A stretch of DNA of 64,000 nt, from NCBI GenBank assembly GCA_000004695.1, contig CM000154.2, positions 928,001-992,000 on the forward strand. The letters run 5' to 3'. Both the position numbers and the translations under genes were made by a program. Positions 1,613 through 61,866 of this stretch are shown here, in pieces (position 1 is the first letter of the stretch; each line of letters begins with the position of its first letter). Source of the DNA: Dictyostelium discoideum (taxonomy: Eukaryota). Below the pieces are notes generated by a model. It saw only the letters and a list, made by a program, of their open reading frames with translations, made no database searches and had not been told where the DNA came from.

Positions 1613-3763
1613 TTAAATTTGAATTTTACTACCAATTTCCATCATTGAACTATGATGAATACCATAATAATGAGCTTCTGATCTACTGTTTTGAAGAAGA
1701 ATATCATAGATAAAAATCGATAAACGTTTTAAGATGAATTGTTTTTTTGAAGATTTAACACGTAATCTAGATAAGAAATAAGTGATATGTGGAACACCTT
1801 CAACTTCAAGTTCAACATCATTTCCTTCGGTATCATTTTGTTCAGAGTAATGATATCCAACAATTTCTTTTTTAGTTGTTGGAATTACCAATTTTTCTTG
1901 ATCTTGAGTGGTGGTGGCTTTAATTTTATTAATTGATTTTGGATTTAATTGAATGAGTCTTTCAATGAATAATTTTTTAATTACCCAAGGTACATTAATG
2001 ATTTCAGCATAACCATAGTTAATACTAATTTGGAATACACCTCTTTCTGGTATTAATTCTTTGGCAACGACACGATGTTCATCTTTAATGAAAGGTACTG
2101 GTAAATGATAAATGTTTACAAAGAATAATGGATATGGCATATGAGTAAGGAATGGTTGTAATTTAACTAATGACAATGGTGTTTTCTCTTCATAATGTGA
2201 CATGAAAACGGCGGCATCACCTCTGTTTAAAAGATCCACTTGTTGAAGAGTTGTTGAAAGTGGTGGTGAACTATCATGAATTACTTTAATCATTTTACTT
2301 CTACCATATCTCCAAATTAACATTATTGATGACATTACGATACCAATGACTATTGGATACCAACCGCCAGTTGGAATTTTTTCAATACTTGATGTAAAGA
2401 ATAAACCATCCATAATTATAAAACATAAACCCAATGGAACGATTACCCAATAACTATAACGGAAATGTAATCTAAGTACGAAAATATACATTATTGTAGT
2501 TGCAATCATAACCATTGATACACCTAAACCATAAGCACCAATTAGAGATGATGAATGTTTGAATCCAATAACTGTTATCAATGTAAGAAATGCCAATACC
2601 CAATTAACTTGTGCAATATAAATTTGACCAGAGATTTTTTTAGAAGTATGTTTAACATGTAATGGAGGGAAGAATTTCAATGAGATAACTTGATTGATGA
2701 TAGAGAACGAACCAGATATTAAACCTTGAGATGCAATAACACAAGCAACCGTTGCTAAAATGATCATTGGCCAAAAGAATGAAGTTGGTATCATTTCAAA
2801 GAAAGGATTTGAAGTGTTTGGATTTCCAAGGAATTGAGATGCTTGACCCAAATAGTTTAACATTAAACTTGGCATTACGATTAGAACCCATGATAATCTA
2901 ATTGGCATTTTACCAGTGTGTCCTAAATCAGCATATAATGCTTCACAACCAGTTACACAAAGTATTACTGTACCCAATAAAAGAAATCCTCTTGATCCAT
3001 TCAATAGAAAATGTTGAATACCTTCCCATGGATTGAATGCTCTAAAAACTATTGGATGATCAATTACCTTGAGTAAACCGAAAATACCAATTGAAAAGAA
3101 CCAAAGAATCATAATTGGACCACAGACAATACCAATAGCTTCAGTACCAAATGATTGAACTACAAATAGGAAAAATAAAATTACAACTGTAATTGGTACA
3201 ATCCATTTTTTAATTTCACCTCCTGGTACACCAACTTCTAGACCCTCAACGGCACTAAGCAATGATACGGCAGGTGTGATAACGCCATCACCCAAAATGA
3301 AAGAAGAACCACATAGAGCCAATATTGTTAGAGCTGATTTCAATTTTTGATTGGTTTGTTTTGGAATTAATGAAACCAATGCAATGATACCACCCTCGCC
3401 ATTGTTATCAGCATTTAGAATGAAAACAACATATTTCACTGTTACCACCATAATCAATGCCCATAGAATTAATGAAAGACTACCAATCACCTCTTTCTCT
3501 CCTGGTGGTCCTTTAAACATTGATGCATAAACATACAATGGAGATGTACCTATGTCACCAAAAATACAACCAATAGCTGTAATTGATAAATAGAAAGTAT
3601 TCCAAATACCACTACGATTTTTTTCACCCATACTTGGATATAAACTTGTAATTCTTTGAATTGATTGAACCACTTGTTCCTCTCTAATTTCAACAAGATT
3701 TTCGGTACCTTGACTTCTACCACTATCACTTTCACTTTTATTAGAATAATTTTGATTATCCAT
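1613..3763 (-). CDS. KUP/HAK/KT-family potassium transporter (716 aa)
   Basis: Full-length ORF with about 12 hydrophobic segments and the family signature GDIGTSPLYV near the N-terminus. Overall collinearity with bacterial Kup and plant/fungal HAK transporters. Confidence 0.85.
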   Translation of the reverse strand: MDNQNYSNKSESDSGRSQGTENLVEIREEQVVQSIQRITSLYPSMGEKNRSGIWNTFYLSITAIGCIFGDIGTSPLYVYASMFKGPPGEKEVIGSLSLILWALIMVVTVKYVVFILNADNNGEGGIIALVSLIPKQTNQKLKSALTILALCGSSFILGDGVITPAVSLLSAVEGLEVGVPGGEIKKWIVPITVVILFFLFVVQSFGTEAIGIVCGPIMILWFFSIGIFGLLKVIDHPIVFRAFNPWEGIQHFLLNGSRGFLLLGTVILCVTGCEALYADLGHTGKMPIRLSWVLIVMPSLMLNYLGQASQFLGNPNTSNPFFEMIPTSFFWPMIILATVACVIASQGLISGSFSIINQVISLKFFPPLHVKHTSKKISGQIYIAQVNWVLAFLTLITVIGFKHSSSLIGAYGLGVSMVMIATTIMYIFVLRLHFRYSYWVIVPLGLCFIIMDGLFFTSSIEKIPTGGWYPIVIGIVMSSIMLIWRYGRSKMIKVIHDSSPPLSTTLQQVDLLNRGDAAVFMSHYEEKTPLSLVKLQPFLTHMPYPLFFVNIYHLPVPFIKDEHRVVAKELIPERGVFQISINYGYAEIINVPWVIKKLFIERLIQLNPKSINKIKATTTQDQEKLVIPTTKKEIVGYHYSEQNDTEGNDVELEVEGVPHITYFLSRLRVKSSKKQFILKRLSIFIYDILLQNSRSEAHYYGIHHSSMMEIGSKIQI

Positions 3764-21500: not shown

Positions 21501-21601
21501 GTAAATATTACTTTTTTTTTAAATATTATTAAAGTTTAATGTAATATTAATTTTTTTTTTTTTTTGTTACATATTTTTTTATTTTATATATATATATACA
21601 G

Positions 21602-22931
21602 ATTAATTAATTATTTAGAAAATGAAAAAACATTATCAGATCATCAAAAAAGTGATGTAGTTGGATCATTTTATTCAGATGGAGAGATACCATCTGTACC
21701 ACATATCAATTTGGAAGAGTACACAAGATCCGTATTAATTGAAGCATATTTAGAAGTTTGTAAACCGGAATATGCATTTTACTATTTCAAACAGAGTGAA
21801 AATAATAAAACCAATTCAAAAGGTTTATTATTAATGATTGAATTTTATATTAAAATTGGTGATATTGATTCAGCTTTTAAATTTTTTGAGGTCAATTTCA
21901 AGGATTATAAAGATTTAATTAGTACAAATGATTATTATAAATTATTCAATGGATTAATCACCTATTCTATCGATAATCAAGAAAATATATTTGATATTAA
22001 AAATAAATTTTTTAATGTAATTATAAATGATAATATTAATAATGATATTGAAAAATTTAATGTTGGTTCATTAGCTTCAATGATTGAAAGTATAACACCA
22101 AAATATCAACCACCACCACAAGAACAACAATTAATGGATGATGATAGTAATAGTAATAGTAATAATGATAGTAATAATATTATTAAAAACAGTAGTAGTA
22201 AATTAGAATTTAATGATGATTGTGTTAGTAATTATAAAAAGTTGGTGAATTTTGATCAACTTTATTCAATTTATAAAAATAATTATAAAAAATATACAAG
22301 TGATCAAAGATTAATTATTTTAAGTTGTATACTTAAATATTCAATTATTACAGCCGATATAGAATTATTTTTGAATACTGTAAATAGAGTTTTGGTGAAA
22401 GATGGTATTGAAAAGGTTGAAATTCCAATTCTTCAAATACTTTTTGAAGCTTACACACACACAATACCATCGGATAAACCAGAGTTGGTGGGTCAATTAA
22501 AATATTTGTTAACAAATTACATCAAAGATATGGATTCATCTGATAATGGTTATAAAAGTATATCAAAGTTAATCGCATATAATTTCTCATTCAAAGGTGA
22601 TATAAAAAATTCAATTTATGATCAACTATGTGGTATTGGTATAAAATCAATTGAAATCGATATTGAAAATAATATTGAAAATAGTGTATTAATAAATAAA
22701 CTTAAACAAGAACAAAGAGAAAAAGAACGTAATCAGTTTATTATATTTATACAATCAATATTTCCTGAAGATAGAATTCAACATTTTGTAGAAACAGCTT
22801 TAATATATTTAATAAATGATAATAGTTATCAAGAAGCAGTTAAACTTTATATATATTTTTTAAAAGAAGGTTCAGTTACTGGTATTGATATATTTTTAAA
22901 ATATCATGAATTATCTTATAAAAATATAGTT

Positions 22932-23010
<79 letters not shown>

Positions 23011-23310
23011 TTAAAAATTTTACAACTTTTAGTGAAAATGATCATAAAACTTTAAAAACTTTTTGGGAAAGAATAAAAAATAATTATGTCAATAATAATA
23101 ATAAACAACAACAACAAGAAGAAAGAGATATTGAAAATGAATTTATATTTATTGGAAAAGGTGAAATTAATAATGATCAGCTTTTAGAAAAATTTCAATA
23201 TATTAAAGAATTTAGAAATATTAAATCATTTTTCAATTCATATGAAGAAAATTTAAATCCAAATGATTTTATTAATTATATTAAAAACATTATTAATAAA
23301 GTAAATGATG

Positions 23311-23368
<58 letters not shown>

Positions 23369-24644
23369 TGATGATGATGGTGGTGGTCATGGTGGTGGTG
23401 ATGTTTTTAAAACTACAACACCAAAAAAGGTAAAACCTTTAATTTCAACTATTCAAAAATCACAAAATGAATTACCAACAACAACAACATATAAAGAGAT
23501 AATAGAAAATACAAGTTTTTTTAGAAATCAACAATATAATTTTAATCGAGAATTATCATCAACTCTTAATAGTCCAAAATCTAGATTAGATTTGGAAAGA
23601 TTACAAAGCTTTTTAAATTGTAAAAGTCATACAGAAAGTATGAGTTTTCAACAACTTTGTATATGTTTAGAGTTAGTTGGTGATACTGGTTTTAAATATG
23701 ATTTTTATAAAAATTTAAATCATATTCAAAAAACCTTGATTATAACTCCTCAACTTTGTAAAAATCTCTTCTCAACGGTTACCATGGATGAGTCAATTGA
23801 TATTTTGAGAAGAGGTTTGTCAAGAATTTCACCAGAAAATTTGAAGAGTCTTGGTATTTGGGATGGCGTATTCCAAGGCTTGCTAAAAGATCCTCTCAAG
23901 ACTCCATTGGCCAATTTCCTCATGTATAATGGATTTATATCAAAATCATCATTTGATAGGTATTCCTATTGTCAACAAATCATAAACACCGATATCGATG
24001 CATATTATTTCTTTTTAGATCCATCGATTAGTTATTATGATACCTTTGGTGGTGATATAGAAGATGCATCAAATTACAACCTTAAAAAGGATAGCTCAAA
24101 AACCTTTTTTAAACCAATGGAAGATTTCTTTATAACTTATCTTGACACTTTCTTTAAAGCATCCTCTCCCCATGAAATAAGCCAAAGACCTGATTATCAA
24201 ACTCAATTTTCAAATTATACTATATTAAGTTTAATCCGTCTAGGTAAACTAAATGAAGCATTTAAAGAAATTGAATCTTTATCACCCGCTAAATATAATG
24301 CCACAACAATAGGATTGGTAGTTTTTATTTATAGTAAAAGGTATAAACAGGATAAATCGAAATTCCTTGTAGAAATTCAATCATTAATTCAAAGAATAAT
24401 TTTTGATCTAGAAAATAAAATGGGTAGTGAAGATGCCAGATCTTACTTTCATAAATACATTCTCAAATCGTTAATTATTAATTATGGTAACATTGAAATG
24501 GATAATCTTATTGCAAACGTTGATGTTCCAAAAGTTTTAAAAGATATTGATAACTCTTTAGCTCCAAATTTCGATCGTCGATTAATTAGAAAATTATTCA
24601 AAGTTCGTGGTTATATTAAATATAGATTTTACCGTTTAAATTAA
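21602..24644 (+). CDS. Second large Asn-rich protein (about 1204 aa in total), exon 2 of 2. Helical-repeat regions (TPR/PPR-like?) carry poly-Asn and poly-Asp/Gly inserts.
   Basis: Acceptor ...atatatacag at 21599-21601. gt+A gives Val, then LINYLENEKTLSDHQKSDVVG... continuous with ORF 21564..24644. Repeats such as LIEAYLEVCKPEYAFYYF, MIEFYIKIGDIDSAFKFF and LIRLGKLNEAFKEI are suggestive of TPR/PPR-type helical hairpins. Confidence 0.6.
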
Positions 24645-24970: not shown

Positions 24971-25190
24971 AATTTCTTTGATTTGTTTTGTTTGAAAAAA
25001 AAAAAAAAAATGATCATGGTTTTTTTGAAACGTTTTTTTTTTTCTGAAAAAATTTCAAAAAATAAAAAAAATAAAAATAAAATAAAATAAAAAAAAAAAA
25101 CAAAAGAAAAAAAAAAAAAAAATAAAAAATCTATTTAAATAATATTAAAATTTTAATTTTTAATTTTTTTTTTTTTTAAAATGTTTGGAA

Positions 25191-28100
25191 ATGTTAAAAC
25201 ATATTAAAAATTTTTTAACTAGAAAAGAAGAAAGAAAAGAAAAAGAAGTAGAGAAATTAAAAGATGGAGTATCAATAACTGAGGTTAAACAATCGAACCT
25301 AGTAGTTTATTCATGCAATGGTTGTGGATCAGAGATATGGCCACCAAAACAAGAGAGATATGCATGTAATGAATGCTCAAATTTCGATTTATGTAGTGAG
25401 TGTTATAGAAAAGAAATGATATTAATAAATGGTACACAAGAAGAGAAAGATAAATTAGTTAGTGGGGAGAGTAATAATGGAATAAAGTACGAGCCAGTGA
25501 GACATTATGATCCATCACCATTACCTCATCAATTAACATTAGAGAATGAGACTCAATTTCAATTAGTTTATAGTTTACGTGGTAATTCAACATTTGAAAC
25601 AATGGAGAAATCATTTAAATACTTTAAAAACAGACCATGTCTTGGTATTAGAGAGAGATTAGGAGAGGATAATGTTTTATCAGAAAGATATAAATGGTTA
25701 ACATATGGTGAAGTGTATGAGAAATCTTTAACCTTGGCAAAGGCATTAACTAATTTCATCGAAAGAAGAGATTTCATTTCAATCTATATGGATAATTGCT
25801 TAGAATGGTATTTCACAGATTTTGCATCATTATGGGCCGGATTAATAGTGGTACCATTACATCATGCTTCAAATAGTTTTAATCTTTTAGAGATTCTTTG
25901 GAATTCCGAATCAAAATGTATAGTTTGTTCTGGTGAATCATTTAAAAATTTAATAGAACTTTATGATCAATTGACTGAGCAAGATAAATTAGAGAAACCA
26001 ATAGTGTTGAAATTGATAGTTCATAAGGAGGATCTATTCGATCAGTCATTAGTCGATAGATTGCCAAGTGGCGTAGAATTTAAAACTTTCAATGAGATGA
26101 TTAAAATTGGGGAATCATTAAGTCAGGCTAAATATGAATTTGTCCCAGTTGGTCCAAATGATCTTTCCTCGGTGACTTATACAAGTGGTAGTACTGGTGT
26201 ACCAAAAGGTGTAATGAAGTTAGATTCAATTTTCAATTTACTAATTGTCAATTCCTATGTTCAATTCCCAAATGCAGTTTATAGTTATAATACCCTATCA
26301 CATAGTCAACGTTTAAGTGATTGGAGATATATTTATATGGGTGGTAGAGTAGCTATCTATTCAGGTGATATGAATCTATTATTTGAAGATTTAGCCTTGG
26401 TTAGACCTCATTCATTTTGGGCTGTACCAAGATTTTGGAATTTATTATTCACCCAGTTCAAGAGTGATCTAAAGCAATACATGTTTGAAAATCCACAATT
26501 GGATGAAAGAACTGCCACACTCTATTGCTATAAAGGTATTAGAAAGTTATTAGGTGATAGAATTAATAATCTAGTGACTGGTGGTGCTCCGACTGCAAAT
26601 GAAGTACTCAAATTTATGAGTGATTGTTGGAAAGATATAAACATTTCAAATTCTTATGGTTTAACTGAAGTATCAGGTGTTTGTATAGATGGTTATATCT
26701 CTGACGAAGTAGAATTCAAAATTGAACCAGTACCTTCTTTTGGATATTACCCAACTGATTTACCACATCCTCGTGGTGAATTGGTTGTAAAATCATCAAC
26801 AATGTCTGCAGGTTATTATAAAAATACTCAATTAACTTCAGAATCATTTGAAGGTGGTTGGTTTAAAACTGGTGATGTCGTAGAATTAATTGGAGTTAGA
26901 AAAGTTAAAATCATTGATAGAATTAAACATGCCTTCAAATTGGCAAATGGAGAATTCGTTACACCAGAACCATTGGAAAATAATTTCGTTTCACTTTGTA
27001 TTAATCAAATTTTTATTTATGGTAATTCACTTAAAACATTTTTAGTTGCAATTGTTAAACCATCACAAGATTGTTTAAAACAATTAGGACTTCAAGATAT
27101 ACCAATCGATCAATTAATTGAAAATCCAACTTTAAAATCAAAACTTTTATCAGAGATTAATAAAATTTCAAAAGAAAAAAAACTAGCAAATTATGAAATT
27201 CCAAAAATTATTACAATAGATTTCACTGAATGGACAATTGATAATAAATTAATCACTGGTTCTGGTAAATTTAATAGAGGTGAATTATATAAATTTTATA
27301 AAATTAAAATTAATAATATGTTTGATATAATTGATAAAATTCAACAAGGTTTAAGAAATAATAATAATAATAATAATAATGATAATATTAATAATAATGA
27401 TAATAATAATAATAATGAATCAAATAAAGATAATTTTGAAAATTATATAAAATCAATTTTAAATTTAGACGGTAGAATTGAAGATAATAATTTTAATTTA
27501 GAGAATTTATCATTTATTCAAATTGGTGGTGATTCGTTAGGTGCTGTTAAATTATCATCACTTTTAAAAGAAAAAGAAAATATTGATATTTCACCTTCAA
27601 CAATTTTAAATCAAAATTTTAATTTATCTTCATTATCGAAATTAATAAATGAAAAAGAATCAAATCAATCAATTGTTGAAGATTTTAAAGAAAATTTTAA
27701 AATCAATTGGAATGAAGAGATGATTTTAGATGAAGATATTAAAAAATCAATTGACCAAATTAAAAATGCACAACCATCATCAACTCCCTCTTCATCAAAA
27801 TCAACACCATCACAATCATCATCATCACCACCACCATCATTAAATTCAAATAATATTGGTCAAAATGCTTTTCATATGAAATCAATATTTATTACAGGTG
27901 TTACAGGTTATTTAGGTACATTTTTATTATTTAATTTATTAGAGGATAAATCAATTGGTATTGAGAGAATTTATTGTTTAGTTAGAAATGTAAAGAATGA
28001 AGAAGAAGGTTTTAAATTAATTGAAAGAATATTTGAAAAATCTTGTATCAATGGTATGAATGAAAAGATTAGAGAAAAGGTAATTCCAGTTTGTGGTGAC

Positions 28101-29006
28101 TTATCAAAACCATTTTTCGGTGTTTCTACTGAAACCTTCAAAATGTTATCTTTAGCGGTCGATATGGTAATTCACAATGGTGCCATTGTTAATATGGCCT
28201 ATCCATATGCGAATATGAAATCAACAAATGTTACATCAACTCGTGATATCCTAAGATTATGCACTACCGGAAGAGCCTCTTTTAAAAAGTTGGTCTACGT
28301 TTCAACAGTTGGTGTATTCTTTGGAAATGGTGATGAAAAGATAGATGAATCAACAGCACCATCAACTTTCTTTTTAGATCATGGTAATGGTTATAACCAA
28401 ACAAAACTAATATCAGATATACTTGTTAGAGAAGCGGCTTCATATGGTTTACCAACAATGATTTTCAGACCAGGTACAATCTTTAGTCATACCCAATCTG
28501 GTTTCAACAATCAAAATGATTCAATCGGTTTAATAATTAAAGGTATCCTAGGTTCGAGTTCCTATCCAACTAAAAAAGATTACTCTAGTGGCGATTTAAA
28601 TCTTTCACCAGTTGATTGGGTATCATCTTCAATGGTTTCTTTAATTAAGCATCTTCCATTTTGGTGTAATAATACAAAAATTTATCATATGGTAAATGAT
28701 AATCGTTTATCTTTAGATTTGCTATGTCAATATATAAATAAAGAAAAACAATTAGAAGAAATTAATTATTTCGATTGGATCGATGCTCAACTTAATTCTT
28801 CAAATAATCCATTGTATTCTATTAAACATTTATTTAAAAAGAATGATCGTTTCCCAATTGGTTCTCAGTCAATTAAAAATCCAAAAACTATTAAAGATTT
28901 AGAATCAATTGGTGAACTTCAATGTCAACCAATATCTGATTCCACAGTAATCAATTATGTAAAATATTTAATCTCAAATAATTTAATTCAAACAATTAAT
29001 AAATAA
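25191..29006 (+). CDS. ZZ-type zinc finger + adenylation (AMP-binding) + phosphopantetheine-binding (thiolation) + thioester-reductase (NAD-binding) enzyme, i.e. a carboxylic-acid-reductase / single-module NRPS-like A-T-R protein (about 1271 aa)
   Basis: ZZ finger: YSCNGCGSEIWPPKQERYACNECSNFDLCSECY. A-domain motifs: TYTSGSTGVPKGVM, GGWFKTGDVVEL, IDRIKHAFKLANGEFVTPEPLE. Carrier domain: IQIGGDSLGAVKLSS. R domain: FITGVTGYLGTFLLFNLL (GxTGxLG), YNQTK (YxxxK). The track ORF starts at an alternative TTG at 25185; the first ATG is 25191. Confidence 0.8.
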   Translation: MLKHIKNFLTRKEERKEKEVEKLKDGVSITEVKQSNLVVYSCNGCGSEIWPPKQERYACNECSNFDLCSECYRKEMILINGTQEEKDKLVSGESNNGIKYEPVRHYDPSPLPHQLTLENETQFQLVYSLRGNSTFETMEKSFKYFKNRPCLGIRERLGEDNVLSERYKWLTYGEVYEKSLTLAKALTNFIERRDFISIYMDNCLEWYFTDFASLWAGLIVVPLHHASNSFNLLEILWNSESKCIVCSGESFKNLIELYDQLTEQDKLEKPIVLKLIVHKEDLFDQSLVDRLPSGVEFKTFNEMIKIGESLSQAKYEFVPVGPNDLSSVTYTSGSTGVPKGVMKLDSIFNLLIVNSYVQFPNAVYSYNTLSHSQRLSDWRYIYMGGRVAIYSGDMNLLFEDLALVRPHSFWAVPRFWNLLFTQFKSDLKQYMFENPQLDERTATLYCYKGIRKLLGDRINNLVTGGAPTANEVLKFMSDCWKDINISNSYGLTEVSGVCIDGYISDEVEFKIEPVPSFGYYPTDLPHPRGELVVKSSTMSAGYYKNTQLTSESFEGGWFKTGDVVELIGVRKVKIIDRIKHAFKLANGEFVTPEPLENNFVSLCINQIFIYGNSLKTFLVAIVKPSQDCLKQLGLQDIPIDQLIENPTLKSKLLSEINKISKEKKLANYEIPKIITIDFTEWTIDNKLITGSGKFNRGELYKFYKIKINNMFDIIDKIQQGLRNNNNNNNNDNINNNDNNNNNESNKDNFENYIKSILNLDGRIEDNNFNLENLSFIQIGGDSLGAVKLSSLLKEKENIDISPSTILNQNFNLSSLSKLINEKESNQSIVEDFKENFKINWNEEMILDEDIKKSIDQIKNAQPSSTPSSSKSTPSQSSSSPPPSLNSNNIGQNAFHMKSIFITGVTGYLGTFLLFNLLEDKSIGIERIYCLVRNVKNEEEGFKLIERIFEKSCINGMNEKIREKVIPVCGDLSKPFFGVSTETFKMLSLAVDMVIHNGAIVNMAYPYANMKSTNVTSTRDILRLCTTGRASFKKLVYVSTVGVFFGNGDEKIDESTAPSTFFLDHGNGYNQTKLISDILVREAASYGLPTMIFRPGTIFSHTQSGFNNQNDSIGLIIKGILGSSSYPTKKDYSSGDLNLSPVDWVSSSMVSLIKHLPFWCNNTKIYHMVNDNRLSLDLLCQYINKEKQLEEINYFDWIDAQLNSSNNPLYSIKHLFKKNDRFPIGSQSIKNPKTIKDLESIGELQCQPISDSTVINYVKYLISNNLIQTINK

Positions 29007-29062: not shown

Positions 29063-31227
29063 TTATTTGTTTTCTGCCAATTTTTTTAATTTTTTATCGA
29101 ATGATTTAGTAAATCTAGATTCACGATGTTTTTTAATAATGAAATAGGTTATTGAAAAAATAATAACAGCAGCAAATCCTACTGATCCAATAATGATACC
29201 AATTAGTTGTGTTGTGGTTAACTTTGATTTACTTTTACAAATTGAATATTCTTCATCATTTGAAACTGATTTTGAATCAATTAAAACTGAAAAATCAGGA
29301 TCTACAATTATAGATTGTTTATAATTTGGAATGGTAATACCTATGAATGATTGTGATGTTGATGGTGTTTTTATTGTTTCCATTGAAGAATCTAATAAGA
29401 CATTATCAATGGATCTAACATAATTATCAATAATAGCACGTTTAATAAATCTTCCATAAAGTGAATGATCATCAATTTGAATTTTGAAATAGTTTGAATT
29501 GTCATCCTTTGAACTATCACCAAATTTTGTTAATGAGCAAATATCATTATTATTATCAGTTTCGAATGATGCAGACATAACTAATTGTAGTTGATTTAAA
29601 CTATTTGAAAATTTATATTCCGAAATTTCAATTGTATATTTCACACTAGATGCATCAATAGTCATTTGAGAATTTGCAAAGGAAATGTTTGTTGAATCTT
29701 TAAACCATTCAATATTTACTGTTATTGTTGTTGTAATATTTTCATTTAAAATCATTGCTTCATATTTACTTTTAGAATTTGTTATTGTGGTAAAAATCCA
29801 TTTTTCAAATGTGAATGATTTGATTGGTTTTGATTGAAAATCTAATTCTCTTAAAGATACAATTGATATTAATGATTTAAAAATGTAATAATTTGTTGTT
29901 TGGTTATTGTTGTTTGTATTGTTATTGTTTCCAGGTATAATTGGAATTTCAACAGTTGGTGTTGATGTATTTGTTGATGGTTGTGGAATGATAATAACTT
30001 GAGAACCACAATCAATACCAACCCATGGTTGATAACAAATACAGCCTGATTGTGAACAATAACCTTGATTCTTACCACCACATTCAGGTTCACCTATACA
30101 TTTTTGTGGCTTATTTGTTGGGATTGGAGATAAAGTTGGAAAAATTGTTGGTGGTGGATATTTAAAAACTTTTGGAGTTACCACAAAATGATTTGATTCC
30201 TTATTATTAATAACTATCGGACTGCTATCGACAATTTTAATTATAAATGGTTTATCTGTTGGTTTTATATCTTCAATTAACATGGTAACTCCATATACTT
30301 TAGTTGGTTGAGAAATTTGTGAAAAATCTGTATCTGAATAGTATTTAATATGAACAAGTTGATTTGGACCAAATTTTGTACCCATTATCCATAGCTTATT
30401 TCCAGTCGAGGTAATTTTAGTAGTACCCTCAATAAATAATCTTTCTACTATCGGTAAATCGGGTATTGAATAAATGAAAGAACTATTCTTTAAACATTCA
30501 GTTGAATAACCACTAAAATAACCACCGTTATTAATAAAACCATAAACACTAAAAATTATATCTTGTTTATATCCAAAAGCATATGGAATGTCAATATCAC
30601 AAGTAAAAGTTGCAGTTGAATTGTTTTTGTATAATAATTTTGATTTCCCTTCAATCACTCTTAAATAACCAGTTGAAATATAAACAGTTGGAAATTGTTC
30701 ATCTTTTAAACCAGTATCTTCATCGAAAACTTGAAAATTAAAAGAAATAATTTGGGAACCATCACTATTAACAGTTCTATTGGCTTCAAATGATAAAAGA
30801 ACTGGAGGTGATTCATCTATTCCATCATTAACACCAATACATTGTTTATATATTCTATTGATTTCAGAGTCATTCAAATAATTGATGAATGGATTTGTTA
30901 ATAAATTGACTGCTTTCCAAGTTGAAAATTGATTTAAATTCAAAGATCTATCCCATAATTCAACATCTGTAATTAAATAGTATTGTGATGCACATACACT
31001 TGATAATGTAATATTAATTTCGTATTCACCCAAATAAATATCACCTTTAATTATATGGTTTTCATTTAAATTAAAAGTATAAATTGAACCATCCATTTCA
31101 CCTCTTACAACAATTTTTCCTTTTAAAAATCCATTAATAGGGTCACTAATTACAAACCTAAAACCAATATAATTACCATTATTAATTTTAATAACATTTT
31201 CAAATATTGGACCATATGCATCAAAAT
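29063..31227 (-). CDS. Type I transmembrane glycoprotein with IPT/TIG-like and EGF-like modules (Tgr-family-like?), exon 6 of 6. This exon holds the EGF-like Cys cluster, the TM helix and a short basic cytoplasmic tail.
   Basis: EGF-like cluster: KCIGEPECGGKNQGYCSQSGCICYQPWVGIDCGS. IPT-like segment: PIVERLFIEGTTKITSTGNKLWIMGTKFG. TM helix: LIGIIIGSVGFAAVIIFSITYFII. Tail: KKHRESRF. Acceptor aaaag at 31228-31229; phase-1 entry. Confidence 0.6.
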
Positions 31228-35823: not shown

Positions 35824-36551
35824 TTAATTTAATAATTTTAATAATTTATCAACTTGTACACCAATTGAGTTATCTTTTTTTGAAGCTTCAGTAATTAAAA
35901 ATTTAATTTTATCAAAATTTGAATTAATAATTTTAAATTTACCACCTGTGACTACAATATCTTCTAAAAGATCTAAACAAGATTTTTTTACAGCTTGATA
36001 TTTTGTATAATTTAAAGTTTCAGCAATTGTTGAGAATAATTTGATAATATTAGTTTCATCAAGGTAAAAGTTAGAACTTTCAGAGCAATCATCTAATGAC
36101 CAAATTGATTTAACGAAACAAGATAAAGCATAAAGTATTGATTGTTGTTCACTCCATAAACTTGAAACTAAATTATTTAATAACGAATCAGCAATTGATA
36201 GATTCTTTAATTTTGTTTCTTTAGTTGATGCTTTGAAAGAGTCGCCAATTACATTATAGATTTGAGTTCTAATTAAAGCTTTCATTGGTCTTAATTTTAA
36301 TTCATCTTTGTCAATCTCTTCTTTAGGGTCAACATTCATTGACTCTTCAGTTGATTGATTAAAAACAAATGGATAAAACTCTTCAATAACTTTATCATAA
36401 ATATCAATAGTATTAAATGATTTTAATATTATTGATAAATTTGTAATTGCTTTTCTTTTATATTCTAAATCATTCTTTTTACATTCATTAAACATAATAT
36501 TTACAATTTCTGATGGTGTTGGAATATTATTACCATTATTACTACTACTAC

Positions 36552-36584
<33 letters not shown>

Positions 36585-39500
36585 TTGAATCAATAATAGT
36601 TTTTGAACAAATTGTTGATAAAGTTGATAATGAACCTAATAAAGAATCTTTACCAGGATAAGTTCTACCTTTAAGACCTTGAACAATTAAATTTAAAATC
36701 ATTGGTAAATGAGTATCAATCATATTTCTAATATCATCGGTTAAACTTGATAAACATAAAGCAGCTTGTTCCTTTGTTGACCAAGTACCACTATTCATAT
36801 TGGTAGTGATTAATTTTATAATTTCATCAGAATATAATTTAATTGAACCAATTGAATTATCATCCCAAATTGATTTATATAGTTCAGAGATTTCTTTCTT
36901 TGGATGTGATTTATAGAAATAAAGGAATGGTATAACATCAACATTGAAATTTGAAATCTTTGAAGGACAATTCTTGAATAACTCTTTATAGATCGTACCA
37001 ACTATTATTAAATTATCTTCCAATTGTAATGGATCAGAATCTGCTGATACTAAACTTGAAATTCTATCTAAAAGTTGACCCATTAGCTTGGTTGGTGATT
37101 TCGAAAGAATATGTGAGAGAGCAACAATGAAATGTTTTCTAATGGTTGGTGATTTATCAATGACAGAAGGGAACATTGTGTTAATCAACTTTGTTAGGGA
37201 TTGTTCTGGTAAATCATTGATTGGTGCAGTTTTCGATTGGAATAAAGCCCCAATGAATTTAGCAACACCAACTCTGGTGATAATACCAACACTAAATTGT
37301 ACCAATTGATTGAGATTTGCCAATACTTGAGTAATATTTGAATCGTCGATATAACGTTGACAAACTTCTAAAATATCATTTAATGGTGAAGTTTTTGAGA
37401 TTTCAACTCTCATAGATTCCAATTGTTCTTGTGAAACGTTCATTGATTCAGCATGAAAACTTGCATAATTGAAACTTGCAGGCTCTAAACTACTCAACGA
37501 TTCCAATAGCACAGTGATCATATCGGGTATGTATGGAGTTAGCAATTGTTTTGAACTCTTTGAAATTCTAACCAATTGTTTAATTGAGAATTGTTTGACC
37601 TCGTTGGAATCATTTGAAATACCTTTGTTAAGTATGAATGGTAAGATCAACTTCAATACCTCTTTGGCTTTACTTGGTGAAGTATAGGCAGGATCACATA
37701 AACGAGCTGAAACATTACCAATTGATTTCATTGAAACTTCTGCTGCCTTTCTAACAGATTCTTTTATATCATCCAATGTTCTGAAACTCATAAAGAATAT
37801 CTCCTCCAAATAGGGTAAAATCTGTTCTGGTGTTGCATTTTGAATTGTATCAGGAATGGCGGAACAACTTGCCTCTCTAACTCTCCAAGCAGTTGTACCC
37901 ATACCTTGTAAGACCTCTTTTAATATCGGTTGGAAATATTGTGGGAATAAATCTTTTTGATCGATTAATGCATTAAGAATACTCTTCATTGAAGCGGCCA
38001 TCTTTGGATTTGGATCATAAACGAATCTATAGATCTTTGGAATTAATGATGGTAGCAATGGAGCCAACTCATCCTTTGCTTTGGATGCCAATGATACGAT
38101 TGCAAATGATGCACCTTTCTTTGAATTCCAAATTTGGTGATGAGTTGATAAATTCATCAACTTATAGACCATATCAGGTTTACCAAGATCATTGGCAACG
38201 GATGTTAACTCCTTATAGGTCAACGCTGACCCAGTTTTATTACCACCATTAATTGTACCCTCTGGTAAGAGTTCAGTTGAACCAGGTGCTTTTTGAGTTG
38301 GTTTACCACTTAATGTTTTACCAAGATTTGATACTAAAAATTCTTTAAACTTTGGATCAATTGATGAATCATAAACCAATGTTATACCTTTGGATGCAAC
38401 ATCTTGAGTTAATTCATTATTATCAGATAACAATGAAATGAAACCATTTTGAATCAAAGGTAATTGTGGTTGTACAAATGGTAATTTACCAAAATTCTTT
38501 AATAAACATACCATCCAAATACCAGCTGAACATCTTGTAATTGGTGATTGTCTATCTGAAAAATAATTTGTTAAAATTCTATCAAATGTTTTAATAATAT
38601 TTTTACTTTCATCATCACCACCATCATCATCATTTCCTGAATTATTATTATTATCATCATCAATTAACATATTTGATTGACTACCTAAAAATTCAATTTC
38701 TTTTCTTTTTTCAGATAAAATTTCTTCAGTTGAAAATGGTGAAAAAGGGAAAATTGATTGTTTCATTTTATGACCACCAATAATTAATGATAAAGTTTCG
38801 CCAATTGTAAATTGCATCTCTTCATTTTTATTATTTACCAATTCAAAGAGAGAATCTACAACTTTTTCTTTAAATTCTTTTGAATCATTATCACTATCAC
38901 CAAAACAAATCCAACCCAATGCTTGAATTGAACCCTCTGCTAAATTTCTTTCACTTGATGCAGTTGATTTAACCAATTGAATTAGCTTTGAAATGATTTT
39001 TAATTTCTCATCCAATGTTGAAAATGGCAATGATTTATAAACACCAACTAAACCAATCGATTGAACTGTACATAATTTAATTGCTTGATTATTATGATCA
39101 ATGAATCTTTCAAATATTAAATTTATAAATTTCTTTACCACACTTTCTTGATTGATTTTTTCAGATTGTTGTTTTCTATTGAAATTTGAAATCATTGATG
39201 CCAATGATAACATTGAACCATAAACTTCGATTACATCATTATCAAACTCAACCTTTTTCATGAACTGATTAATTAATTCATCCAATTTCTCTTTATTAAA
39301 ATAAAAACTAATTAAACCAATCATTTTAGAATAAAGATCTTTAAATAGTGGTTTTGAAGATTGAATTAACTTTTCAATTAAACCTAATTTCGCTGGTGAT
39401 TGAGCAAATTGTTCAATGACTTGTTCATCTAAATTCATAAGATCCAATAATGAAGTTGAACTAACCAAAGCAACTTCATCACCAATTTTACTTTGTAAAC

Positions 39501-41034
39501 CAATTTCAATGAATGATAAATACTTTTCAATGCTATCTTTATCTAAGCTATCCATTACGTATTGTGATGTAGTTTGGCCATTTAATAATGCTGATTTTCT
39601 TAAACACTTTCTTAACAACTCCAACATATTCTCATAAGACATTGCAGAGAATCCAATTTGTAATCCACCTTGAAAGTATTTTGATTTACCACCACCACCA
39701 GAACCTGTATTTGATTTTATCAACTCTTCACGACGGTCAATTATATAATTTAATAATGATTTAAAATCTGGATAAATTTGTTTTGATTCTTCAATCGTTG
39801 GTGGAATCATCATATTACCTTGATGTTGGTATGGTTCTAAGCCTCTCTTTGCTTCCTCTCTAATGTCAGGTCTTGAATCACCACTGAAAATCAAACTGAT
39901 ATAACGTGATCTAATATCTTGAAATGGGAAACAATGTTGTGCCCATTGAAGACATATCGTACGGATTTGATATTCACTATTTTCATAACCATGTACAAAT
40001 GAATTTAAAATACTAATTAACTGATCACCAATCTCTTTAGATGGCTCGATGAACGCTTCTCTCATCATAACTAGTGAATCTTGAATTGATATTGCCACCA
40101 TTGACTCTTCGGTGGTGACTTTTCTCATTAGCTTACCAATCAATTGAATATCGTTCTTGAATAGATCCTTATTACGTTTACATAATAAACCCAAAGACAT
40201 ATAGGTAAATGATTTCAATTCATTAACCTCTTTACTTGTACTACCGGAATTCTCCAACTCATCGATTAACTTTAACAAACCAGAGAAAATCACAGGACCC
40301 ATAGTTGATAACTGTTGATCTGATGAATGTCTAAATACCCATTGAACAAATATCATTGCCGATTGCTTCAATTTCATTGTTGTTGATGAGCCATAAATAC
40401 TATCAAATATAACATGTAATGTCAACGAGAATTGGTTTGCTGCTACAATCGATTTACAAAAGTATTGTAAAATTCTTTCTTTAAGAATTGGTGATGCTTC
40501 TTGTCTTCTTTGATCTAATGGTATTTCAGGTTGAGTCTGTTGTTGTTGTTGTTGTTGTTGTGATTGTTTTTTTGAAGCAATAGCTTGTGAACCTAAAAAT
40601 ATTGAATACATTTGTTCAATCAATTCACTATTCTCAAATTTAACTTTTGATAATCTTTTTATGAAATCTTCAGCTTTCTTTTGAACCTCTTGAAAATTTG
40701 AATCAACCGATGCAACCAAGAAATGTAAGAATATATCATTCTCTTGTTGAATCACTCCACTTGATAATACATTCAATATTGCTAATTTCCTTTCATTCAA
40801 TTGATTGAAATCATACTTATTCAATTGTTTACCCATTATTCTTTGTAATGATACAGAACTATGACATGGTGGTATACCACCAACGATTGCCTTACTTTGT
40901 GCTTCTGGTGGTGGTGTTATTAAAAAATCAAAAAAGAATGATAATATAATTTTACTCTCTTTTTCATTTCTTAAAAATTCAAATAATTCATTCTTTTCTT
41001 TTTCATTCTTTGGAATTTGAACTGAAATTAATAT
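35824..41034 (-). CDS. Proteasome adaptor ECM29 homolog (HEAT/ARM-repeat; about 1878 aa in total), exon 2 of 2
   Basis: Long HEAT-repeat ORF, 1670 aa from its internal Met, that extends in frame upstream to the acceptor aaaaaaag at 41035-41036. The region following the exon-1 homology (...GGIPPCHSSVSLQRMGKQLNKYDFNQLNERKLAILNVL) is collinear with human ECM29 (GIPQPPPGMS...EQCKLGIVKF). Confidence 0.8.
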
Positions 41035-57904: not shown

Positions 57905-57919
57905 CATAAAAATTGACAG

Positions 57920-58786
57920 ATATACACGAGATAATAGAAGAATTAGAGGAATTATCATTGAAACCAGTTCCAAAAGAGAGAGAAACATTAATATTAAAAC
58001 AACAGCAACAACAATTGTTACAACAACAAGAACAAGCAGCAGCAGCAGCAGCGATACAATCACCACAAACAGTCTCAAAAATGAGTAAACTTAAATCTGG
58101 TTTATTTGGAAAGAGAAAAGAACTTACACAAAGTAACTCAACAACTCCAACAACACCCGCCACACCAACAGCAACACCAACATCATCTTCATTATCATTA
58201 CCAACACCTCCTCCACTACCACAACAACAACAACAGCAACAACAACAACAACAGCAAACTTTTAATGACCAAAGTAAATTAACAGCAACCACACCAACAC
58301 AACCAACACCAATTGAAGAAAAGAAACAACAATCATTTAAAACATTTTATCCAGCAGCACATAGCAATAATAGTAGTAATGGTAGCGATCATGGTGGAAA
58401 TGTTAATACAACAGGTGTATCACCATCATCACCAGGTGGTGGGGCTCATTCATTTGGTTCTTTATCTCAACATCGTTTGTCTTCTTCACTATCACTAAAA
58501 TCAATAAGTAGTGGTGGTGGTAATAGTAGTAGTAATCTAGTTGCTGATATAAATAATAATAATAATAGTGTAAATAAAGATAATAATACAACAATTAGTA
58601 GTAGCACAGTTACTACAAGTAATAGTATATCAGAATCAAATAATCAAGATAGTAAATTATTAGTTGCAACTACTACAACAACTACAACAACTACTACAAC
58701 AACTATTTTAGCAACAATACCAACTACCACAACAACCTCTACACCAACAACACCATCAACTGTTGGAGGAACCACACCATCACCAC

Positions 58787-58820
<34 letters not shown>

Positions 58821-60399
58821 TGTAATAACATCACCAATCAGTAGAATATCACCATCCAATATAACCTCACCATCGAAATTATCACAACAATCAACGCCAA
58901 GACAAAGACCTCTAACAATTGCACCAACAAAATTAAATATATCACAAGTTAGTAGTCCACAAAAGCCAAGATTAAAATATTTAAGAACAAGTTCAAAATC
59001 ATTAAGTATGGCATCATTACCAGCGGTTGGTCCAGATGGTACAATAATAGTTGATGGTGGTGCTAGTAGTGGAACGGAATCAACATCAATGACAAATCAT
59101 CATAGTTCATTTTTAAATCAATCAACTTTACCACTTGGTAGTTCACCAGTCCAAACTACACCACCATTATTATCAAATAGTATGAATAATAGTACAAATA
59201 ATTTACAATCATTACAACAACAGCAACAGCAACAACAACAACAACAACAACAACCAATAAGTGAAAATAATTATTATAAATATATGAAAGGATTATCATT
59301 ATTTAAAATAGCGACAGATTTAATAAATTATGATTTACCATTATGTTTAGAATGTACAAAATTAACAATTGGAGAATTAGAGGATGAAGGATCAATTTTG
59401 GACGGTGAAGTATCAATTTATAGTGCATATTTAAAACAATTAGAAAAAGGTAAAACTGAAGAAGATTTGGAGGAATTGGGTAAAGAGATGACATTACTAT
59501 GTGAAGAGGAGGAACAATTACGTTTAATGATTGAAAATACACATCAAGAGAGAAAAGAAGTTGAACAATTAACATTACAACTTCAAGATAGAATTGCAAC
59601 GTTGAAATCATTGGAAGATAGTTATTGGAGTTGTTTTAGTGAATTTCATTATGAAACTTTTAGAAATAAAGACGAGAGAGATCAAACCACCGTTCAAATT
59701 CAATGGGTTAATGACCATTTAGAAAGTTTAAAACAAACCAATATTCTCAATGATGCTTTCCATCTATGGCATGATGGTCATTTTGGTACTATAAATTCAT
59801 TACGTCTTGGAAAGTTACCAAGTCAACCAGTGGAATGGAACGAGATCAATGCAGCATGGGGTTTAGCAGTATCACTTTTGGATGCAATGGCAAAGAAGTT
59901 GAAATTTAAATTCCAACAATTCACATTGGTACCAAATGGTAGTTGTTCAAGAGTTGATAAAAGAGATGTTGATCCACCATTGGCCTATGAACTTTATGGT
60001 ACCAATGATATTAGTTTAGGTCGTTTATTTTGGTATAGACGTTTCGATAATGGTATGATTGCTTTCCTTCAATGCATTAAAGAACTATGTGAACATATCA
60101 CTGAAAAAGATCCAGAATTCTCTGTTCCCTACAAAATCGATAAAGAATATATAGGTGGAATGTGTATTAAATTACAATTCACAAATGATGATACTTGGAC
60201 AAAATCTTTGAAATTTATGTTAACAAACTTAAAATGGATCTTAATTTGGATTGTTAAAAATGAAACTTTAACTTTATTTAATAATCAACAATTTCAACAA
60301 TCAAAATTAAATAATAATCAAAATAATAATAATATTAATAATAATAATAATAATAATATTAATAATAATAATAATAATAATGTAAATAAAAGGAATTAA
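57920..60399 (+). CDS. atg6: Beclin-1/Atg6 homolog, exon 2 of 2 (about 855 aa in total). A long Q/S/T/N-rich low-complexity region is followed by the coiled-coil and BARA domains.
   Basis: The C-terminal 350 aa are collinear with human Beclin-1: [41 protein letters not shown] aligns with [41 protein letters not shown], and TWTKSLKFMLTNLKWIL with QWTKALKFMLTNLKWGL. Acceptor ttgacag at 57918-57919. Confidence 0.85.
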
Positions 60400-60437: not shown

Positions 60438-61793
60438 TTAAGATTTTTCAATTGTAAATAATTTTGAATCATTACTAAAATTATTAATTTGATTAAAAGA
60501 ATTTGATGGTATATAGATTGTAGTTCTAAAGAATTTTTTATCATTTTTAAAATCATAATCAAAACAAATTATATTAACATTATAAGATGCAATACAAGGT
60601 GCTTTAATTGTAAAAGGTTTAATACCATCGAATGAGATTTTATTATAATCAAAACTTGTCCAATTTGAAATGTTTGTAATTGTTGGTACTTGTTTACCTA
60701 AATAATTTAATGGCAATTCTTTAAGAGTTTGCATTTTATTATGCCATGTTATTGTTTTAAAAAAATTATCATTTGTAAATTCTGAAACATCTTTACGATT
60801 GATTTTAGCCAATTCTAAAATTGATTTATTTTTAATATCTGATACTTTAAATAAAAGATTTTGTTGGAATCCAAAATTACCAATATGCTCTTCACTTAAA
60901 TTACAACGTTTTCTCATATTACATGTATATCTTAATCTAAACTCTTCGTCATCTGAAATCGATTCATTCATTGATAATATTTTAATAATAATTGAATGAA
61001 TTATATCATTTGTTGATAAATAGCAATCAGTTATTATTGATTTAATTAAATTTTCAATTTCAATTAAATTAAAATTAACTTTAATTGTAATATTTTCAAT
61101 TTTTGGTTTTTCGCTACTTGTATCATCACCACTACTACTTCCAAATGGGGTATAGGTATATCCTAAAAATTGTTTACCGTAATCACGAAAATTTTGTAAA
61201 TCTGTTAATGATGGTTGATCCCTATCATAAAAATCTTGACCATTAATTATTATTGGTTTCTTTAATGTTACTTTTTCATTTTCACCATTGTTTGAATAAA
61301 TCATTGAAAGATATTTAAAGAAATAGTACATACTACTTTGATCAAATAATGAATGATTAATACTATATCCAATTACAAAACCATCTTTTAATATGGTTAA
61401 TTTAAATGAACCCATTGGTAATCCTTCTAAATCAAAAGAGAATCCATTTTTCATTCTTTCATCAAGTAATTTCATTGGTATAATTGATTCTAATGTTGTT
61501 GTTTCAATTAATTCATTTTCTCTATTTTCAATTTCCAATTGATCATTAACTTTGTGATGTGATTTTGGTGGGTAACTAATGCACCAAATTCCATTTTCAG
61601 AGTGAAATGTTGATAGTAAAACTGGGAACTCATCGAATACTTGCTCCATTGATTTTAAGAATTTCTCTAAATCAATCTCTCCTTTAAAGAAATAACCACC
61701 TCTTGAGAAAACTGTATGTGCTGCATAATCTAACCCATCAAATTTCTTATAAAAAATATTATTTGATTTAAATAATTTTGAAGTATCTGTCAT
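60438..61793 (-). CDS. HxxxD-motif acyltransferase (chloramphenicol-acetyltransferase-like / BAHD-condensation superfamily), 451 aa from the first ATG at 61793
   Basis: GFVIGYSINHSLFDQSSMYYF contains the catalytic HxxxD. The protein is about 450 aa with no low-complexity tracts. The track ORF starts at an upstream alternative TTG at 61865. Confidence 0.5.
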   Translation of the reverse strand: MTDTSKLFKSNNIFYKKFDGLDYAAHTVFSRGGYFFKGEIDLEKFLKSMEQVFDEFPVLLSTFHSENGIWCISYPPKSHHKVNDQLEIENRENELIETTTLESIIPMKLLDERMKNGFSFDLEGLPMGSFKLTILKDGFVIGYSINHSLFDQSSMYYFFKYLSMIYSNNGENEKVTLKKPIIINGQDFYDRDQPSLTDLQNFRDYGKQFLGYTYTPFGSSSGDDTSSEKPKIENITIKVNFNLIEIENLIKSIITDCYLSTNDIIHSIIIKILSMNESISDDEEFRLRYTCNMRKRCNLSEEHIGNFGFQQNLLFKVSDIKNKSILELAKINRKDVSEFTNDNFFKTITWHNKMQTLKELPLNYLGKQVPTITNISNWTSFDYNKISFDGIKPFTIKAPCIASYNVNIICFDYDFKNDKKFFRTTIYIPSNSFNQINNFSNDSKLFTIEKS

Positions 61794-61847
61794 TTTTAAA
61801 GTTTTTATAATGAAATCTGATTTTTGAAAAAAATATTTTTTTTTTTG

Positions 61848-61866
61848 AAATAAGCAACAAAACAAA

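Follow-up and report, generated by a model that had tools for sequence, protein, structure and literature searches.

The locus described here raises the question of whether Dictyostelium discoideum possesses a carboxylic acid reductase (CAR) and, if so, how such an enzyme is related to the known ones. The gene concerned, DDB_G0288001 (Q54JK0), is located at positions 25191..29006 of the forward strand within a 64,000-nucleotide stretch of D. discoideum contig CM000154.2, which is the window analyzed in this work and to which all coordinates refer. CARs are sought-after biocatalysts and, to our knowledge, they have so far been known from actinobacteria and fungi. The analysis carried out indicates that the DDB_G0288001 product is CAR-like in mechanism and belongs to a separate family, outside the bacterial CAR equivalog and Lys2, in which an N-terminal ZZ zinc finger is followed by adenylation (A), carrier (T) and thioester reductase (R) domains. 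The domains are individually ordinary and the protein already bears the database label 'Carrier domain-containing protein'; what appears to be new is the conserved protist ZZ-A-T-R family, apart from bacterial and fungal CARs, with a Gly-type reductase and, in Dictyostelium, a split finger.

The gene consists of a complete, single-exon coding sequence of 1271 amino acids, from the ATG at 25191 to the stop codon at 29004-29006. The translation is identical over its full length to XP_636931.1/Q54JK0 ('hypothetical protein DDB_G0288001', D. discoideum AX4), and therefore the gene is single-exon as annotated, with the same boundaries, in agreement with the single open reading frame (ORF) of the original prediction. 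In the ORF listing the frame reaches upstream to an in-frame TTG at 25185. The window is AT-rich and Dictyostelium-like (about 14-35% GC per kb), and in a genome of about 22% GC, with AT-rich stop codons, a 3.8-kb ORF is far beyond chance. The possibility that two genes had been read as one is opposed by the same single-polypeptide layout in independent genomes and transcriptome-derived sequences, which argues against fused models; because several family members are transcriptome assemblies, the ZZ-A-T-R fusion is transcribed as one unit.

Four domains score over their Pfam cut-offs: ZZ (PF00569, aa 39-73, 29.4 bits versus a cut-off of 21.4), AMP-binding (PF00501, aa 161-543, 155.1 versus 29.9), PP-binding (PF00550, aa 771-818, 23.6 versus 20.8) and NAD_binding_4 (PF07993, aa 901-1147, 187.9 versus 20.1). 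The thioester-reductase model TIGR01746 is also exceeded (aa 899-1265, 216.5 versus 213.35), and no degeneracy of the motifs was found under hidden Markov model (HMM) scoring. With the additional backing of structure prediction and conservation, the proposed ZZ plus A-T-R layout and its carboxylic-acid-reductase-like interpretation are upheld, and the quoted motifs are all present: the CxxC/RYxC core of the ZZ finger, GGDSL (779-783), GVTGYLG (903-909) and Y1068xxxK1072. On the forward strand, the ZZ core (aa 38-75, 25302..25415) is followed by a lineage-specific insert with two predicted helices (aa 76-104, 25416..25502) and by the motif H105-Y-D107-P-S-P-L-P-H113 (25503..25529). The adenylation domain, of the ANL superfamily and CAR/long-chain acyl-CoA synthetase (ACSL) type, was delimited by HMM, motifs and structure prediction at aa 126-715 (25566..27335). 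A poly-Asn, low-complexity linker (aa 716-750, 27336..27440), with a predicted local distance difference test score (pLDDT) below 50 at aa 725-738, leads to the carrier, or peptidyl carrier protein (PCP), domain matched by PF00550 (aa 751-825, 27441..27665), whose Ser782, within GGDSL, is encoded at 27534-27536. A second long low-complexity linker, recognized in the sequence as Ser/Pro-rich (aa 826-895, 27666..27875), precedes the R domain, predicted to be NADPH-dependent from its matches to TIGR01746 and PF07993 (aa 896-1265, 27876..28985). An AlphaFold2 model of aa 1-760 has a mean pLDDT of 83 and a predicted template modelling score (pTM) of 0.76.

Several lines of evidence place the A domain in the branch of CARs and long-chain ACSLs. 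A phmmer search of the PDB retrieved the Nocardia and Segniliparus CARs as best matches (E 1e-87 to 1e-75), and a Foldseek search with the aa 1-760 model gave E-values of 3e-48 to 1e-45 for CAR A domains versus about 1e-29 for other ANL enzymes, the top superposition being the A-PCP didomain of the Segniliparus rugosus enzyme (SrCAR, 5mss; TM-score 0.69, root-mean-square deviation (rmsd) 3.7 Å, 640 columns). The top NCBIfam model is that of the bacterial CAR equivalog, NF041592, although its 439.9 bits (aa 138-828) are far under the cut-off of 1300; the next A-domain matches are long-chain fatty-acid CoA ligases, and the FadD and ACSL models all stay far under their cut-offs as well (for example NF004837, 107 versus 476). 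The amino-acid adenylation model TIGR01733 reaches 75 bits versus a cut-off of 317. Domain HMMs and a full-length profile have also been built for the DDB_G0288001 family. With the A-domain HMM, bacterial CARs scored 294-366 bits, animal and plant ACSLs 294-343 and ACSL-sized A-only proteins 405-440, in contrast to 17-112 for A domains of nonribosomal peptide synthetases (NRPS); with the full-length profile, bacterial CARs scored 650-744 bits, ACSLs about 370-417 and a fungal Lys2 361. In local BLAST comparisons the best non-amoebozoan A-domain matches were CAR/FadD9 proteins (250-268 bits). Taken together, these data show an A domain of the CAR/long-chain ACSL branch, not of the amino-acid type found in Lys2.

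Distance-based neighbor-joining (NJ) trees of the A and R domains were constructed with 100 bootstraps. In both trees alike, bacterial CARs were monophyletic (100/100) to the exclusion of the protist sequences. In the A-domain tree, a group of protist A-T-R proteins and CARs versus ACSLs was recovered in 46/100 bootstraps, and a CAR plus ACSL group in 0/100; the deep branching order was beyond the resolution of these trees, and they give no grounds for claiming transfer in either direction between bacteria and protists.

The R domain gave a different picture. Its best solved matches are MxaA (164 bits, E 3e-47) and then a terminal reductase of a polyketide synthase (PKS), in contrast to 66-79 bits for CAR R domains. 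In the local comparison, the best non-amoebozoan matches are terminal reductases of the NRPS type (156-167 bits), CAR R domains scoring about 100-120. The NJ tree of this domain is a star in which protist sequences are interleaved with NRPS/PKS reductases, and the mean distance from the protist sequences is 1.44 to NRPS/PKS reductases versus 1.73 to CAR R domains. The R domain thus resembles NRPS/PKS terminal reductases of the MxaA kind more than those of bacterial CARs.

Catalytic residues were placed by HMMER alignments to solved CARs together with the list of CAR signature residues of Stolterfoht et al. 2018 (PMC5826065), and all of them were found: His371, Glu588, Ser782, TGxxGxxG, Arg932, Tyr1068/Lys1072 and GxxNxxD. 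The A domain contains the motifs A3 (YTSGSTGVPKG, 330-340), A5 (GLTE, 490-493), D576-R577 and A10 (K693). The essential His of the CAR PxxH motif corresponds to His371, equivalent to NiCAR H300 and NcCAR H237, and the essential hinge Glu (GEK/F of CARs) to Glu588 in KLANGEF. In the R domain, TGVTGYLG (902-909), the NADPH-binding Arg932, the triad Thr1039/Tyr1068/Lys1072 and GFNNQND (1104-1110) were located. Conservation was counted in 82 cluster representatives of the protist A-T-R type and in 64 bacterial CARs. The phosphopantetheine attachment residue Ser782 is Ser in 82/82 and 64/64, respectively, and the R-domain triad and NADPH motifs are kept in 74-81 of the 82 protist representatives. 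At the position of His371, His is present in 61 of the 82, with Trp or Tyr in some, and part of the family may have a different active-site arrangement. A metagenomic ZZ-A-T-R sequence (P0010) and the Arcella protein P0012 show Asn (ANSDR / SNSDR) at the His371 column (about 480).

A further position distinguishes the protist reductases from those of bacterial CARs. Asp998 of SrCAR, in the linker loop (FRSDMI), aligns with Gly1095 of DDB_G0288001 (FRPGTI). Gly is found at this position in 58 of the 82 protist representatives, in which Asp is outside the four commonest residues, whereas 59 of the 64 bacterial CARs have Asp. The linker-loop Asp of bacterial CARs has been proposed to impose a strict two-electron reduction, and MxaA-type R domains release alcohols (PMC8024701).

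Orthologues with 41-98% identity occur across Dictyostelia (D. citrinum, D. dimigraforme, D. firmibasis, D. purpureum, Tieghemostelium, Polysphondylium and Cavenderia), followed by more distant relatives in Arcella and Balamuthia and then by actinobacterial CAR/FadD9 proteins at 25-30% identity. One Balamuthia member of the family carries the annotation 'long chain acyl-CoA synthetase 7'. An exhaustive search with a ZZ plus A profile yielded 6898 cluster representatives at E<1e-30 (clusters at 50% identity), the best 150 of which were classified with the family domain HMMs. Among these 150, a ZZ finger is present in about 44, of which about 36 show the complete ZZ-A-T-R layout. A-T-R proteins with no detectable ZZ number about 45, some of them N-terminally truncated models, and A-only proteins, many of ACSL size, about 60. 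The ZZ-A-T-R proteins come from Acytostelium, Heterostelium, Cavostelium, Stenamoeba, Protostelium, Clastostelium and Pelomyxa, with second paralogues in Tieghemostelium and Polysphondylium, and, outside Amoebozoa, from Anaeramoeba ignava and Ancoracysta twista. A final search with the full-length profile returned largely the same candidate pool and no further named taxa. The fusion to a ZZ finger described in the original prediction is thus real, although it is not a Dictyostelium peculiarity but the defining feature of a broad protist family.

Some members of the family depart from this layout. The Heterostelium album protein P0133 (1321 aa), a ZZ-A-T-R protein annotated as 'Putative transposase', has about 300 additional C-terminal residues, and P0009 (eukprot gene8528, 1305 aa) lacks the N-terminal ZZ and has a GNAT (PF13302) C-terminal extension; both orthologue models look mis-built or provided with extra parts. 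In P0117 (eukprot transcript, 1467 aa), a distant A-...-R relative, a Cys-rich zinc-finger-like stretch (CTFCKN...CMDC...CINCNVACCESCFH) is found at about aa 560-610, placed directly before the A3 motif in the A domain and not at the N-terminus. This protein suggests that zinc modules could have been recruited to A-T-R-type enzymes more than once.

The ZZ finger has been analyzed separately. Three CxxC pairs (C42/C45, C59/C62 and C68/C71) and the R-Y-x-C...F-D-L-C core (C42xxC45, R56-Y-x-C59xxC62-x-N-F-D-L-C68xxC71) are conserved, the cysteines being invariant in the family, and the Pfam ZZ model is matched by 8 of 11 close relatives. The canonical His pair, 5-10 residues past the third CxxC, is absent: C71 is followed by YRKEMILING..., and the first His or Cys is H105. 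In non-dictyostelid members a canonical pair (GHPH, GHNH, KHPH or NHEH) is present 5-8 residues past the last Cys, and in Heterostelium and four relatives the motif H-T-D-x-x-P-L-P-H is found about 10 residues past it. The insert, which separates the third CxxC from the H105 motif, has about 30 residues in D. discoideum and about 100 in P. violaceum; its length varies among Dictyostelia and it is absent from Heterostelium-type and non-dictyostelid members. An alignment of 14 family sequences shows an invariant H113 and an H105 that is at least 90% conserved, both aligning with the canonical H-x-P-H, and the motif may thus hold the seventh and eighth zinc ligands. From these data we infer a split finger in D. 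discoideum, in which the second zinc site would be completed by H105 together with D107 or H113. The ZZ finger originally described therefore holds for its three CxxC pairs, but its last two ligands are not at the canonical spacing.

A model of the ZZ domain alone (AlphaFold2, pLDDT 84.8) has a ZZ-like predicted fold. Its top PDB matches in Foldseek are almost all ZZ domains (BIG, CBP/p300, p62, HERC2, PRT1, MIB1 and KCMF1), with probabilities of 0.9-0.99 and a core rmsd of 1.0-1.6 Å over 35-41 residues, the E-values being weak (0.07-1) for this small query; several of the alignments extend across the insert. The finger is an ancient, conserved part of the enzyme family. It probably binds two zinc ions, and its probable role is that of a regulatory module, or one that binds a protein or another ligand, beside the A domain. 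According to the PDB entry descriptions, many of the retrieved ZZ domains are readers of protein N-termini. A highly speculative extension, which we regard as very improbable, is that this finger, like those of p62, p300, BIG or PRT1, recognizes proteins, peptides or small amines by their free N-terminal alpha-amino group and holds the amine by the nascent, highly reactive fatty aldehyde. The enzyme could then couple acid reduction to the covalent modification of the bound N-terminus, by Schiff base formation and NADPH-dependent reductive N-alkylation in the R domain, or it could be switched on or off, or targeted, by N-degron-type ligands. If this were true, it would represent a new wiring of a zinc-finger 'reader' to a metabolic enzyme, conserved across protist supergroups.

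All these features can be accommodated in a functional scheme whose general chemistry is considered likely: a free acid would be adenylated with ATP, bound as a thioester at holo-Ser782 and released reductively with NADPH. By homology, the A domain would convert a free carboxylic acid and ATP into an acyl-adenylate, and the acyl group would be moved onto the phosphopantetheine thiol at carrier Ser782, which DiSfp would install. The phosphopantetheine arm would then swing the acyl group into the C-terminal reductase, of the short-chain dehydrogenase/reductase (SDR) type, in which NADPH and Thr1039/Tyr1068/Lys1072 would carry out the reductive cleavage of the thioester to an aldehyde. With an R domain of the NRPS/PKS type (MxaA-like, with Gly1095), a second reduction to the primary alcohol is possible. 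As for the 4'-phosphopantetheinyl transferase (PPTase) that had still to be sought in the genome, D. discoideum has two, DiSfp (Sfp-type) and DiAcpS, and DiSfp, whose targets are the carrier domains within multidomain proteins, is expressed at all stages of the life cycle (PMC3171403); activation of the carrier domain is therefore plausible. The protein ends in -INK, without a type 1 peroxisomal targeting signal (PTS1). The interpretation that we favor, and that seems reasonably probable, is a functional, self-contained 'NRPS-like' CAR, cytosolic and acting on a fatty or other hydrophobic acid. Because the A domain is in the CAR/long-chain ACSL branch, such an acid, not an amino acid, is the most likely substrate, and the assignment of the substrate class to medium- or long-chain fatty acids or other hydrophobic acids is put forward tentatively, at slightly less than even confidence.

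Among the alternatives, the one that survives best, although it is unlikely, is a broad-spectrum CAR whose main substrates would be aromatic or short-chain acids, for instance benzoate, cinnamate or acids derived from polyketides, and whose aldehydes would serve secondary metabolism or detoxification, not lipid metabolism. The nearest solved relatives, the Nocardia and Segniliparus CARs, have aromatic model substrates (5msd is a benzoate complex), and in 46/100 A-domain bootstraps the protist proteins group with CARs and not with ACSLs, versus 0/100 for CARs with ACSLs; Dictyostelium is also rich in polyketide chemistry (PMC12625978). However, identity to CARs is no more than 25-30%, the ACSL-sized A-only proteins score equally well or better on the family A-domain HMM, and likeness to CARs does not discriminate, since bacterial CARs and FadD9 reduce fatty acids too. 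In addition, the genes on either side include no biosynthetic partners.

Quite improbable is a loading or activation module, in which the A-T part would activate an acid for another enzyme, such as one of the many Dictyostelium PKSs, the R domain being minor or non-canonical. In mycobacteria, A domains of the fatty acyl-AMP ligase (FAAL)/FadD type, together with carrier proteins, load PKSs. This precedent favors the proposal, as do the Balamuthia protein P0013, recorded as ZZ-A-T only, and several family representatives that are ZZ-A only; but the P0013 record bears the flag 'partial', and truncation of the gene models may explain the short forms. Conservation of the R triad and NADPH motifs in 74-81/82 indicates selection on reductase activity, and DDB_G0288001 does not adjoin a PKS.

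A Lys2-type reductase of alpha-aminoadipate or another amino acid, one of the relatives named in the original prediction, shares the A-T-R order, and TIGR03443 matches the T-R part with 184 bits, but 1030 are required and the match covers aa 740-1199 only, with no A-domain alignment, so that this identity is effectively refuted by TIGR03443 together with the scores for TIGR01733, the family A-domain HMM (about 300-440 bits for CAR/ACSL) and the family profile; of the relatives named, the CARs stand and Lys2 does not. Equally hard to credit is a protein that has kept its domains but lost catalysis and acts as a scaffold or regulator: it would fit the lack of a known function, the atypical ZZ finger and the long low-complexity linkers, but all catalytic residues tested are present and conserved over a very deep protist phylogeny.

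Several points weigh against a fatty-acid CAR equipped with a zinc-binding finger. The PP-binding and ZZ scores barely exceed their cut-offs, and the putative last ZZ ligands were assigned from alignment. CAR and ACSL-type A domains take very different acids, both aromatic and aliphatic, and for this reason the fatty-acid assignment is a class-level guess. The searched literature contained no biochemical, genetic or expression data on DDB_G0288001 or its family and no mention of DDB_G0288001, Q54JK0 or a ZZ-fused CAR-like enzyme, and for expression timing the gene was not found in the supplementary files of the Dictyostelium papers searched. Gly is present at the linker-loop position in all known structures of NRPS R domains, aldehyde- or alcohol-releasing (PMC8024701), and because those releasing aldehydes also carry it, the Gly/Asp position is not predictive of aldehyde versus alcohol. 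Finally, there is no obvious metabolic gap to be filled by DDB_G0288001, because the fatty alcohol of Dictyostelium ether lipids is already supplied by the peroxisomal FARAT (PMC7375469).

The family defines a third CAR-like lineage, eukaryotic and deeply conserved, present in Amoebozoa, Anaeramoeba and Ancoracysta. Its domain mosaic is distinct: the A domain is of the ACSL/CAR type, the R domain is of the NRPS type and has Gly for the 'aldehyde-stop' Asp, and a ZZ finger lies at the N-terminus. With such an enzyme protists may be able to make aldehydes and alcohols, fatty or other, independently of fatty acyl-CoA reductase (FAR). The family would also be a natural setting in which to examine the Asp/Gly hypothesis on two- versus four-electron reduction. 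A practical consequence concerns the 'global PKS null' strain of D. discoideum, made through DiSfp inactivation (PMC12625978), the text of which mentions no non-PKS carrier, NRPS or adenylation proteins. Because the DiSfp knockout should leave the DDB_G0288001 carrier domain in the apo form, part of the phenotype of that strain could possibly stem from the loss of DDB_G0288001.

Regarding the genomic context, the gene stands alone: its neighbors (a protein of unknown function, a ComC-like surface protein and ECM29) are unrelated to it, and no biosynthetic partner genes or PKS were found among the neighboring genes. The upstream neighbor (21564-24644, forward strand, 1026 aa), with long poly-Asn and poly-Asp tracts, has no Pfam match at E<=0.001, and the 540 bp 5' of DDB_G0288001 are typical A/T-rich intergenic DNA. 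A 9-codon upstream ORF (uORF) at 25181-25207 of the forward strand (ATG TTT GGA AAT GTT AAA ACA TAT TAA, MFGNVKTY*) begins 10 nt upstream of the main ATG, out of frame, and overlaps the start of the gene; a role in lowering or regulating reductase translation is possible. The N-terminus of the D. purpureum orthologue happens to read MFGEF. The convergent downstream neighbor (29063-31096, reverse strand) codes for the ComC-like protein, with DUF7035, DUF7034, DUF7949 and ComC supersandwich domains and a C-terminal transmembrane segment, and its stop codon is separated from that of the reductase by only 57 bp.

Other recognizable genes in the window code for a KUP/HAK potassium transporter (1613-3763, reverse strand), the proteasome adaptor ECM29 (35824-40836, reverse strand) and a Beclin/Atg6 homologue with a long N-terminal extension (57913-60399, forward strand), none of which has a functional link to the reductase. 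On the reverse strand, a BAHD-like 'Transferase family' ORF (60438-61865; PF02458, E 5e-10) adjoins an ammonia-lyase ORF (62248-63561). The latter, an aromatic amino-acid lyase located 33 kb downstream of the reductase, was considered as a source of cinnamate and rejected, because it is an ordinary histidine ammonia-lyase (hutH, TIGR01225, 540 bits versus a cut-off of 539); the ORF does not include its N-terminal exon.

When compared to known systems, the closest resemblance of the A domain in sequence and structure is to bacterial type I CARs and FadD9 (Nocardia iowensis, Segniliparus rugosus and Mycobacterium marinum; NF041592; PDB 5msc-5msw). The A-T-R order, the PxxH His, the GE(K/F) Glu, the phosphopantetheine Ser, TGxxGxxG, YxxxK and GxxNxxD are common to both, and the same chemistry would be expected, an ATP- and NADPH-dependent conversion of an acid into an aldehyde via a phosphopantetheine thioester. 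On the other side stand the low identity and low NF041592 score of DDB_G0288001; moreover, bacterial CARs form their own clade with 100% bootstrap, have an R domain that is farther from that of DDB_G0288001 than NRPS/PKS R domains are, have the linker-loop Asp instead of Gly and have no ZZ finger. Fungal CARs (types II-IV, such as Neurospora NcCAR) and Lys2 are also eukaryotic, PPTase-dependent A-T-R enzymes with the same SDR-type catalytic residues in the R domain, but their A domains are of the NRPS type, in contrast to the ACSL/CAR type of DDB_G0288001, and they are devoid of ZZ. In fungal CARs, too, the R domain misses the residues considered important for bacterial CARs, and over-reduction of aldehydes can occur (PMC10168641); the first triad residue is Thr1039 in DDB_G0288001, as in bacterial CARs, and Ser in fungal CARs (PMC5826065).

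The terminal reductases of NRPS and PKS (TIGR01746; MxaA, 4u7w; PKS R domain, 8v1x) provide the best solved R-domain match and share the linker-loop Gly and the TIGR01746 score above cut-off. They end multimodular lines that carry peptidyl or polyketidyl chains, whereas the R domain described here follows a single A-T pair of the fatty-acid type. Eukaryotic ACSL/LACS enzymes, whose A domain is as similar as that of bacterial CARs, pass the acyl group to free CoA and, unlike DDB_G0288001, have no carrier, reductase or ZZ. The Dictyostelium FARAT, a fusion of a fatty acyl-CoA reductase and a dihydroxyacetone phosphate (DHAP) acyltransferase that makes fatty alcohol, has a FAR domain of the same 'male sterility' NAD_binding_4 superfamily (PMC7375469); it uses acyl-CoA, is peroxisomal through a C-terminal SKL that is not found in DDB_G0288001, and has no A or T domain. 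Finally, the ZZ domains of p62/SQSTM1, p300/CBP, HERC2, BIG, PRT1 and KCMF1 have the same CxxC pairs and R-Y-x-C...D-L-C core, and the predicted fold of the DDB_G0288001 finger superposes on them, although its terminal His pair is off the canonical spacing, seemingly displaced by the insert of about 30 residues. The proteins that carry the solved ZZ domains are ubiquitin ligases, autophagy receptors and chromatin enzymes; among the domains retrieved there is no fusion to a metabolic enzyme like that of the DDB_G0288001 finger.

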